Below, one piece after another: positions 25,843-26,885 of a stretch of DNA of 64,000 nt (the stretch's first letter is position 1; each line of letters starts with the position of its first letter). A program made the position numbers and the translations under genes. Source of the DNA: a virus; IMG/VR virus record IMGVR_UViG_3300045988_123958. One strand, given 5' to 3'. The notes under the pieces were generated by a model. The model was not told where the DNA came from and made no database searches. It saw nothing but the letters and a program-made list of their open reading frames with translations.

Positions 25843-26885
25843 CATGTTTCTCCAATATTACTATTGGCACTGACTAGTTCTTCGCTCCGGCTAACGTATT
25901 AACTGCCATCATCACGCCTACCTTTTTGAAAGTATGTATCAATAATACTTCCTACTCCCCGACAAAGGGGATAGTCGATACAGGATTAAACTACGATATT
26001 TTTCCAATTCTAATAACTCCATATATTTGTAAAAGAACCATATGTAAGTTTATTAGAATAATCTTTATAAACTTCTCTTATATTTTCTCCATTTTTACGA
26101 CGCAATCTTATTTGATAAACATCTTGTTCGGTCATTTTAGAGCGTCCATTTTTACTTCCCTAATTAGAAGTATTATGTTTATGAAAATTTTTATTTTCAA
26201 TTGTATATACTTCTGGCATAATATTTTTCCAAGTATCACCATTCCAAATTTTATGGAAGCCAGATTCACCAATTAAATTTTTATAATCTTCATAAACTTC
26301 ATTTTTTCTTTCTTGATTATTATAACGAGTTCTAATATTAATAACATCTTGTTTAGTTAATTTATGACTCGGATGACTTTCTTCAGTATTAAATTGCCCT
26401 CCAGGAGTCATATTATACTAATCAGGATAAGTATTATAATATTTTATATAATACTATTCTCTATCATTAAGTTCTTCGATAGAACATTCTTCTAATATCT
26501 CAAAAGAAAAATTATTTATTCCATATTCTAATATATCTTTATATAACTTTTTATTTTTTTCTCTATACCAGTTATATGATTTTTTATGTTCTCTAAAACG
26601 CTATTCTATTTGTGTGCTTTGTCCTATATAAGATAAGTTATTTATTTTATTGGTTATTTTATAAATACCAATCATTTTAATTACCTCACTAATTATAAGT
26701 AAGATAATATCGTAGTTCTTCCCACGAGATTATCTCCACTAATATTTAACGCTCATTCATTTCAATTTTTCCTGAAATGTCCTAAATATTAGCAAGACTG
26801 CCTCGTTAGCCGCCAACTGGAAAATTTTACCAATTCGCGACCCCGCCGATCAGCGGAAAAGTAGGTAAGGGCCAGACTTCCTCGT
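25843..26885 (-). mobile_element. group I intron (IA2, td-like) in gyrB inside the KGLGEM codons, with GIY-YIG endonuclease
   Basis: Exon 1 ends AAA GGG T (U at 26886); P1 AAGGGU:GCCCTT; 5' core ACTTTTCC...GGGGTC...GGCTAACGAGG...TCTCGTGGGAAGAA; 3' core CGACTATCCCCTTTGTCGGGGAGTAGG (near-identical to T4 td P7 region); P9 hairpin; intron ends ...AAACATG; splicing restores RMKGLGEM. Confidence 0.8.
26160..26675 (-). CDS. GIY-YIG homing endonuclease (intron-encoded), in-frame TAGs
   Basis: MIGIYKITNKINNLSYIGQSTQIE[TAG]RFREHKK...NNFSFEILEEC. Confidence 0.65.

Follow-up and report, generated by a model that had tools for sequence, protein, structure and literature searches.

The IMG/VR virus record IMGVR_UViG_3300045988_123958, of which a stretch of 64,000 nucleotides was analysed (the window), carries a gene for the B subunit of DNA gyrase (gyrB) that is interrupted by 1,043 nt at positions 25843-26885. 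The best explanation, with a probability of about 0.92, is that this element is a group I intron of the IA2 (td-like) type, both mobile and self-splicing, in a human-gut phage in which TAG is recoded. The explanation draws on precise boundaries, a covarying RNA fold, pairings between the intron guide and both exons, a presence/absence polymorphism among alleles, and intact catalytic residues in the encoded endonuclease. An earlier interpretation made from the letters of the DNA (the sequence-only reading) had proposed an intron at these positions, splitting gyrB within the KGLGEM motif; its coordinates proved correct, and intron-less alleles, covariation, and a covariance-model match to the T4 td intron now support it. 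The window has a G+C content of 32% and is identical to a 130-kb human-gut metagenome contig (ENA ERZ913377). Genes in the gyrB part of the window are all encoded on the minus strand, and the interrupted gene is organised as follows.

26886-28623, minus strand: gyrB exon 1, starting with TTG (28623-28621) behind a GGAGG Shine-Dalgarno sequence; Pfam HATPase_c, DNA_gyraseB, and Toprim.
25843-26885, minus strand: probable gyrB group I intron, 1,043 nt, IA2-type; precise absence or presence among alleles, covariation, and 180.9 bits on covariance model R1.
25658-25842, minus strand: gyrB exon 2, (L)GEMDTHEM...NIDV, with stop TAA at 25660-25658; Pfam DNA_gyraseB_C and alignment to 2xco.

The open reading frame (ORF) of exon 1 is normal up to ...ELGRMKG and contains no TAG codons, after which it runs into an unrelated 19-codon tail (...RMKGYEEVWPLPTFPLIGGVANW) that ends at a TAA at 26829-26827. 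The missing C-terminus of the protein, GEMDTHEMELV...NIDV, lies about 1 kb downstream of exon 1, at 25842..25658. Both the non-homologous tail and the displaced C-terminus had been described in the sequence-only reading, as had the exon join. Exon 1 ends in AAA GGG T at 26886 and exon 2 begins with TA GGC at 25842, placing the insertion point between the first and second bases of the leucine codon of KGLGEM. Joining U26886 to U25842 keeps the frame, reads RMKG/LGEMD, and yields a product of 640 residues. This joined protein matches Pfam HATPase_c, DNA_gyraseB, and Toprim, and its DNA_gyraseB_C match (residues 571-630) spans the junction. When the joined product was aligned to Staphylococcus aureus GyrB (2xco, ...RYKGLGEMN...), a check suggested earlier, the alignment continued without gaps through RMKGLGEMD. 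The predicted ligated-exon sequence is ...ATGAAAGGGT/TAGGCGAAATGG, and the 44-mer spanning the junction is GAGTTAGGACGTATGAAAGGGTTAGGCGAAATGGACACCCATGA. An intein and a group II intron were considered as candidates and rejected: the insert is out of frame, meets a stop after 19 codons, and contains neither a reverse transcriptase nor a domain V.

Alleles with and without the insert define its ends at single-nucleotide resolution. A scan of IMG/VR with the joined GyrB protein returned 42 loci, which were sorted by how the exons mapped. The insert is precisely absent from ten contigs and present at the same nucleotide in ten others, whose GyrB proteins are 75-99% identical.

L001-005, L012, L013, L030, L034, and L037: continuous, intron-less gyrB, 98-99% identical to the window.
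L006-009: insert of 1,043-1,044 nt at the same nucleotide.
L021, L022, L029, L031, and L032: insert of 1,023-1,044 nt at the same nucleotide; GyrB 75-85% identical.
L016: insert of 287 nt at the same nucleotide, containing no ORF.

All insert-bearing alleles read ...ATG AAR GGG T, then the intron ending in G, then TA GGN GAR ATG, whereas all insert-free alleles of the window lineage read ATG AAR GGT CTN GGN (the L034-type allele around the site is ...CGAATGAAAGGTCTTGGAGAA...). Within the near-identical group, the silent differences between intron-plus and intron-minus alleles are concentrated within about 18 nt of the site. Such differences would be expected if the flanks have to pair with the guide (P1 and P10) and undergo co-conversion in homing.

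Several further alleles bear on the history of this site. Loss of the ORF alone does not account for the 287-nt intron of L016 (5706-5992): although otherwise almost identical to the window intron, it has short hairpins, unrelated to P5 and P6, in their place. The intron-type flank ATG AAR GGG TTA GGN, usually preceded by CGT, also occurs in the gyrB genes of 15 other phage contigs that lack the intron (L167-L180, which are 14 metagenome contigs, and L166, from IMG/VR), mostly 37-42% identical and in one case 78%. These alleles may represent the ancestral state of the homing site, or an intron may once have been present in them and been lost precisely. A second gyrB site, inside the Toprim motif DADVDG/SHI, is occupied by an intron of this family in three relatives (L035, ~4646-5648; L036, ~2006-3008; L042, ~5531-5807), the L042 version being about 280 nt long and devoid of an ORF.

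The RNA of the insert adopts a complete group I fold. Eleven copies were aligned with the ORF loop replaced by GAAA, the group I structure was written out, and its pairs were counted. The helices of the window copy are given below.

26867..26891, minus strand: P1, exon AAGGGU (26891-26886) with guide GCCCUU (26872-26867), U·G at the splice site; paired in 11/11 copies.
26873..26877, minus strand: P10 guide GUCUG, pairing with exon 2 UAGGC (25842-25838); 98% of cells paired across the 11 copies.
26857..26865, minus strand: P3 5' strand CCUACUUUU, pairing with AAAGGUAGG (25925-25917); 9 bp, 100% paired, forming a pseudoknot with P7.
26809..26856, minus strand: hairpins P3.1 (26856-26843) and P3.2 (26841-26809), between P3 and J3/4; compensatory changes in both.
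26724..26806, minus strand: P4-P5 domain, with P4 ACGAGG/UCUCGU, P5 GUCU/AGAU, P5a, and P5b, preceded by J3/4 GCUAA; P4 and P5 100% paired.
25983..26722, minus strand: P6 (GGA/UCC) and the 12-bp P6a, AACUACGAUAUU (26717-26706) with AAUAUCGUAGUU (26000-25989), which closes the ORF loop.
25872..25976, minus strand: whole 3' core, with P7 GACUAU (25976-25971) paired to CUAGUC (25877-25872).
Hairpins of the 3' core, minus strand: P7.1 (25970-25957), P7.2 (25950-25930), P3' (25925-25917), and P8 (25916-25883).
25843..25867, minus strand: P9 hairpin (25867-25852) with a GUAA tetraloop, 3' tail, and terminal G25843.

Across the 11 copies, 97.3% of 1,095 cells form standard pairs. Compensatory pairs number 24, whereas sliding the partners by 1-3 columns leaves 2-5, and none of 500 shuffles reached this count. 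Compensatory changes occur in P1, P3, P3.1, P3.2, P6a, P7.1, P7.2, P8, and P9. For example, P6a is 100% paired with five compensatory pairs, P3 has three (CCUAC/GUAGG, CUCAC/GUGAG, and UCCAC/GUGGA) and is also found by RNAalifold and single-sequence folding, and P9 has one, its loop being GUAA, GUGA, or GCGA among copies. A single A-U to G-C compensatory change in P1 (L021 and L029) means that P1 covaries with the exon. In 11/11 copies, the 5' splice site has the U·G pair and a terminal G precedes TAGG. RNAalifold recovered the same helices except for P7, which is missing because the program cannot draw a pseudoknot, and a single-sequence fold of the ORF-less L016 intron gave the same helices with z = -3.87. 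The individual features named in the sequence-only reading are thus all present, including P1 (AAGGGU:GCCCUU), the final G, and the 5' core segments GGCTAACGAGG...TCTCGTGGGAAG, which correspond to J3/4-P4 and P4'-P6. Together, ten independent contigs with an insert at the same nucleotide, ten that precisely lack it, and 24 compensatory pairs are far beyond what chance would produce.

Two alternative pairings were examined and set aside. A different P3, in which GGCU before J3/4 would pair with AGCC, is incompatible with two stems that covary, P3.2 and the outer stem of P8. The RNAalifold pairing between J6/7 UGUAUCGA and the P7.2 loop UUGAUACA overlaps P7 and lacks covariation, and the loop variants GGUAC and AGCAC coexist with an unchanged J6/7; this segment was left as a conserved loop. 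The 9-nt P7.2 loop UAUUGAUAC (25936-25944) is conserved across the intron family and complementary to J6/7 UGUAUC (25977-25982), possibly marking a tertiary contact, although some variants would not pair. The first 12 nt of the intron, ACGAGGAAGUCU (26874-26885), are almost a copy of ACGAGGCAGUCU (26795-26806), which supplies the 5' strands of P4 and P5, and could therefore compete for P4' and P5'; the repeat is not kept in more distant copies. The stop of the exon-1 run-on frame (TAA 26829-26827) falls within P3.2.

The loop closed by P6a holds the mobility gene of the element.

25986..26675, minus strand: GIY-YIG homing-endonuclease gene, 229 codons, five in-frame TAG codons, stop TAA at 25988-25986.
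26682..26706, minus strand: hairpin over the endonuclease Shine-Dalgarno sequence GAGG (26687-26684), predicted with ViennaRNA.

The five TAGs lie at 26603, 26456, 26420, 26162, and 26012; there is no internal TAA or TGA, and the last codons of the gene form the 3' strand of P6a. With TAG translated as Gln, the product matches the Pfam GIY-YIG family (PF01541, E 8e-9) and the I-TevI catalytic domain (1mk0, E 2e-6), its R26, E73, and N88 aligning with R27, E75, and N90 of I-TevI. It also matches phrog_7168, a family of phage homing endonucleases, over its full length, including the C-terminal part. No C-terminal DNA-binding domain of the I-TevI type was detected, the I-TevI match covering residues 3-90 and no Pfam domain falling in residues 91-229. 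The GIY-YIG domain noticed in the sequence-only reading is therefore present, but the frame is not open under the standard code. Homologous intron ORFs comprise exactly 229 codons in 9/9 cases, are 63-98% identical, and are conserved downstream of every TAG. In the nine ORF-bearing copies folded, the ViennaRNA hairpin has a stability of -8 to -10 kcal/mol, with invariant stems and variable loops, and it would sequester the endonuclease Shine-Dalgarno sequence. Similar hairpins over ribosome-binding sites are predicted upstream of all six endonuclease genes in the window.

The same recoding extends beyond the intron, and the phage probably reads TAG as Gln. Treating TAG as sense raises ORF coverage of the window from 63% to 81%, 26 genes contain no internal TAA or TGA, and no ORF requires TAG as a stop. 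Examples of regions opened in this way are 30870-32171, 7115-8863, and 39609-40349. Use of the codon is unevenly distributed among genes.

Six GIY-YIG endonuclease genes: TAG makes up 33-62% of Gln-type codons.
Endolysin-like gene (9 TAG): 36%.
gyrB, gyrA, ligase, dnaE exon 1, primase-like gene, and AAA_24: 0%.

Some findings weigh against the interpretation as a self-splicing intron in a TAG-recoded phage. When IMG/VR and metagenome contigs were searched for the spliced junction, no transcript was found, and all matches were DNA alleles without the intron, from other and mostly distant phages in which CGT ATG AAR GGG TTA GGN is the natural sequence. P4, P5, and P7 are invariant and offer no covariation of their own. 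At 25877 the window copy has C where 10/10 relatives have A, which breaks the terminal U-A pair of P7 beside J8/7 and could weaken splicing of this copy. No tRNA with the anticodon CUA occurs among the six tRNAs of the window. Finally, Rfam RF00028 (Intron_gpI), the scan proposed in the sequence-only reading, gave no match at the gathering score or at E<=10 in the window, the intron region, or the ORF-less L016 copy. This last negative carries no weight, because the same search also misses the T4 td intron itself.

The substitution at 25877 raises the question of whether the intron family is real while the window copy is crippled, leaving gyrB non-functional or splicing dependent on a protein helper. 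C25877 is unique among the 11 copies, removes the P7 pair adjoining J8/7, and recurs in the identical ENA contig (L165). The mismatch nevertheless sits at the end of the helix and leaves five P7 pairs, including the G-C pair at the J6/7 end, while the remaining intron and both exons are intact and the endonuclease frame is open. C25877 could equally be a tolerated polymorphism or an assembly error, and a crippled copy is improbable. It is more improbable still that the endonuclease ORF is a decaying pseudogene with five premature stops, which would make the intron immobile. Under the standard code the ORF does break after codon 24, and the window supplies no suppressor tRNA. Yet a decaying gene would hardly be interrupted by TAG alone while its 229 AT-rich codons stay free of TAA and TGA, or keep all 229 codons in nine homologues, in which the TAG-containing columns most often hold Gln (6/10 columns). 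The full-length profile match to a phage homing-endonuclease family and the gain of 18 points in coding coverage with TAG as sense argue in the same direction, and the ORF already appears in public gene calls as an uninterrupted product of 229 aa.

The sequence-only reading had named a further alternative, a split gene without RNA splicing, comparable to T4 gp39/gp60. In such a gene, an endonuclease cassette would have broken gyrB, and 574 residues (with the 19-residue tail) and a peptide of about 60 residues would be translated separately and assemble. Public gene calls (ENA ERZ913377) do list two separate gyrB products of 574 aa and 58 aa, and an in-frame ATG lies three codons into exon 2, although exon 2 lacks a convincing ribosome-binding site, the nearest candidate being a GGAG 15 nt from that ATG. 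The break would also fall in the invariant KGLGEM motif. In a split gene, the U·G pair, the terminal G, P10, and the match between exon bases and guide would serve no purpose, whereas the insert has the complete group I fold, with covariation that includes the P1 and P10 pairings to the exons, and exists as a 287-nt copy without any ORF. The split-gene alternative is thus left unsupported and has only the slightest likelihood.

A self-splicing intron would act as follows, given established group I chemistry. After transcription, the RNA would fold into P1-P10, and an external guanosine bound in P7 would attack after U26886, the last base of exon 1, which forms the U·G wobble in P1. With exon 2 aligned by P10, the 3'-OH released on exon 1 would attack after the terminal G25843, producing an mRNA for the full-length GyrB of 640 residues. 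By analogy with T4, the endonuclease would cut intron-less gyrB alleles of co-infecting relatives, and the intron would be copied in during repair, along with a short tract of adjoining exon (co-conversion). On the precursor, the endonuclease gene would be kept silent by two features, the ribosome-binding-site hairpin and the five in-frame TAGs, which would act as stops until the TAG-decoding machinery of the phage is active. Such silencing would exclude ribosomes from the ribozyme while gyrB is being expressed. Delayed translation of I-TevI provides the published precedent for this timing (Gibb and Edgell, 2010, as cited in PMC3984707).

The window contains three further group I introns, in a dnaE-like gene, a DnaB-like helicase gene, and a gene with a GIY-YIG domain, as well as two free-standing endonuclease genes and a tRNA cluster.

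467..1621, minus strand: intron in a dnaE-like (Pol III alpha) gene, splitting ...ERAELP/DIDIDL at the PDxD motif; homing-endonuclease gene at 588-1376.
12082..13116, minus strand: intron of the same family as the gyrB intron in a DnaB-like helicase gene, R1 71.5 bits, junction ...KYIF/HDYIHT; homing-endonuclease gene at 12252-12929 with 4 TAG.
18520..19750, minus strand: intron in a gene encoding a coiled coil and a GIY-YIG domain, R1 42.8 bits, junction YVGQAV/NIADRWKQH; homing-endonuclease gene at 18682-19590 with 8 TAG.
28620-29369, minus strand: free-standing GIY-YIG endonuclease gene with 3 TAG, whose TGA stop overlaps the TTG start of gyrB.
39609-40349, minus strand: free-standing GIY-YIG endonuclease gene with 5 TAG.
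57755-63180, minus strand: tRNA cluster with Cys-GCA, Lys-UUU, Gly-UCC, Ser-GGA, Ser-UGA, and Thr-UGU.

Model R1 missed the dnaE intron, which has the pairings P1 CUGCCU/GGGCAG, P10 GAUAUU/AAUAUU, and P7 GACUAU/AUAGUC and encodes a GIY-YIG/NUMOD3 endonuclease with 3 TAG. The helicase junction is confirmed by the intron-less homologue L085, which is contiguous there. The element at 18520..19750 is a GIY-YIG gene within an intron within a GIY-YIG gene. A subset of genes (37352-38737, 45003-46382, 51081-55261, and 15952-16899) differs from the rest of the window in codon use, favouring CAG over CAA (e.g., 28:0) and AAG over AAA, with a G+C content at third codon positions of 0.37-0.41 versus ~0.18 elsewhere and no TAG.

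The most TAG-rich genes of the window are the four intron-encoded and the two free-standing endonuclease genes; those interrupted or flanked by them (gyrB, dnaE, gyrA, and ligase) contain no TAG. It is conceivable, at somewhat less than even odds, that stop-codon recoding is the main switch for the mobile introns of this phage. Early in infection, TAG would halt ribosomes a few codons into each intron ORF, leaving the four ribozymes free to fold and splice; decoding of TAG would then bring up all endonucleases at once. If true, control of the kind that T4 exerts intron by intron through RNA hairpins and late promoters ('better late than early') would here operate genome-wide and through the genetic code. 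The link between introns and recoding is notable and was already anticipated (Borges et al., bioRxiv 10.1101/2021.08.26.457843). Alleles with the intron, without it, and with an ORF-less version are all available in this lineage at 98-99% identity, as are four introns that carry TAG-dependent endonucleases, and the lineage is thus suited to studying code switching as a timer of selfish-element expression, an idea raised by the same authors. The insertion sites fit the known targeting of invariant catalytic motifs, namely KGLGEM and the dnaE PDxD motif in the window and the Toprim motif DxDxDG/SH in relatives.

Comparison with the T4 td intron places the gyrB intron within a known class. The 3' core CGACTATCCCCTTTGTCGGGGAGTAGG is the same as CGACTATCCCTTTGGGGAGTAGG of td except for a 4-nt difference in the length of the P7.1 hairpin, close to the near-identity first noticed. 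In both introns, P7 is separated from P3' by P7.1 and P7.2; the two have the same P7 strands (GACUAU/AUAGUC) and nearly the same P7.1 and following GAGUAGG. They also share the P1 U·G pair, the terminal G, and a GIY-YIG endonuclease ORF in the P6a loop, and the J3/4-P4 segment of td (UAAACGGGG) resembles that of the gyrB intron (CUAACGAGG), whose P4 and P5 are similar to td UAAACGGGG...CCCGUG. A predicted hairpin around the endonuclease ribosome-binding site adds to the likeness. The label 'IA2, td-like' has quantitative support, because td (L163, 1293-1410) scores 32.8 bits (E 3.3e-6) on R1, a model of the 3' half built solely from gyrB introns. The likeness holds for the 3' core, with its P7.1/P7.2 arrangement, but not for the 5' layout. 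The gyrB intron lacks P2; the 5' strand of P3 follows one base after P1, and two covarying hairpins, P3.1 and P3.2, precede J3/4. This layout is a variation inside the known group I range, because P3.1 is listed as an optional pairing (PMC3873408). Further differences from td are the host gene (gyrB versus thymidylate synthase), unlike P5, P8, and P9 elements without the long P9 extensions of td, an endonuclease that resembles I-TevI only in the catalytic domain (residues 3-90), and an ORF that requires TAG as sense.

The ribozyme core is not confined to this lineage. More than 120 IMG/VR stretches contain the core 15-mer CCTGTATCGACTATC, and among them are 117 distinct 3' halves; the genes concerned are many, gyrB in unrelated phages being one. 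Comparing the locus by blastn with 50,697 phage records revealed similarity to endonuclease genes alone and no related phage, and the only matches of a short-query search of phage records were fragments of the core in phages of Enterococcus and Lactococcus. The Enterococcus phages VRE9_3, EF1, and EF5 and Lactococcus AM1-like phages share the J6/7-P7-P7.1-P7.2 core, whereas they use the standard code, have other host genes, and have no intron annotated in their records. In VRE9_3 (L164, PP680569.1, ~136.6 kb), the core scores 81 bits on R1 directly after an annotated homing endonuclease; the record lists only small 'hypothetical proteins' over the ribozyme. The intron core thus goes unannotated in cultured phages, as it does in the public gene calls of gyrB fragments. 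Because the same core is widespread and unannotated, many 'split' replication genes of gut phages are probably whole once spliced.

Among stop-recoded gut phages, the closest parallel is found in the Agate phages, in which an intron endonuclease in an early gene is recoded with TGA as Trp, and in-frame stops have been proposed to block endonuclease production until late infection (Borges et al., bioRxiv 10.1101/2021.08.26.457843). In both cases the intron endonuclease is preferentially recoded, and the gyrB intron represents the TAG counterpart, with TAG probably read as Gln rather than TGA as Trp and with a gyrB host and intron structure not described there. No report of a group I intron in gyrB or another gyrase gene was found in the searchable literature, whose coverage is incomplete, and a 2014 review of bacterial group I introns makes no mention of gyrase; gyrB is probably a new host gene for group I introns.

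Other interruptions of type II topoisomerase genes are the gp39/gp60 split of T4 and GyrB inteins. The gyrB insert resembles both in that a highly conserved part of a type II topoisomerase subunit is the target of a mobile element. In contrast to both, it would be removed at the RNA level by a ribozyme, involving neither two polypeptides nor protein splicing.

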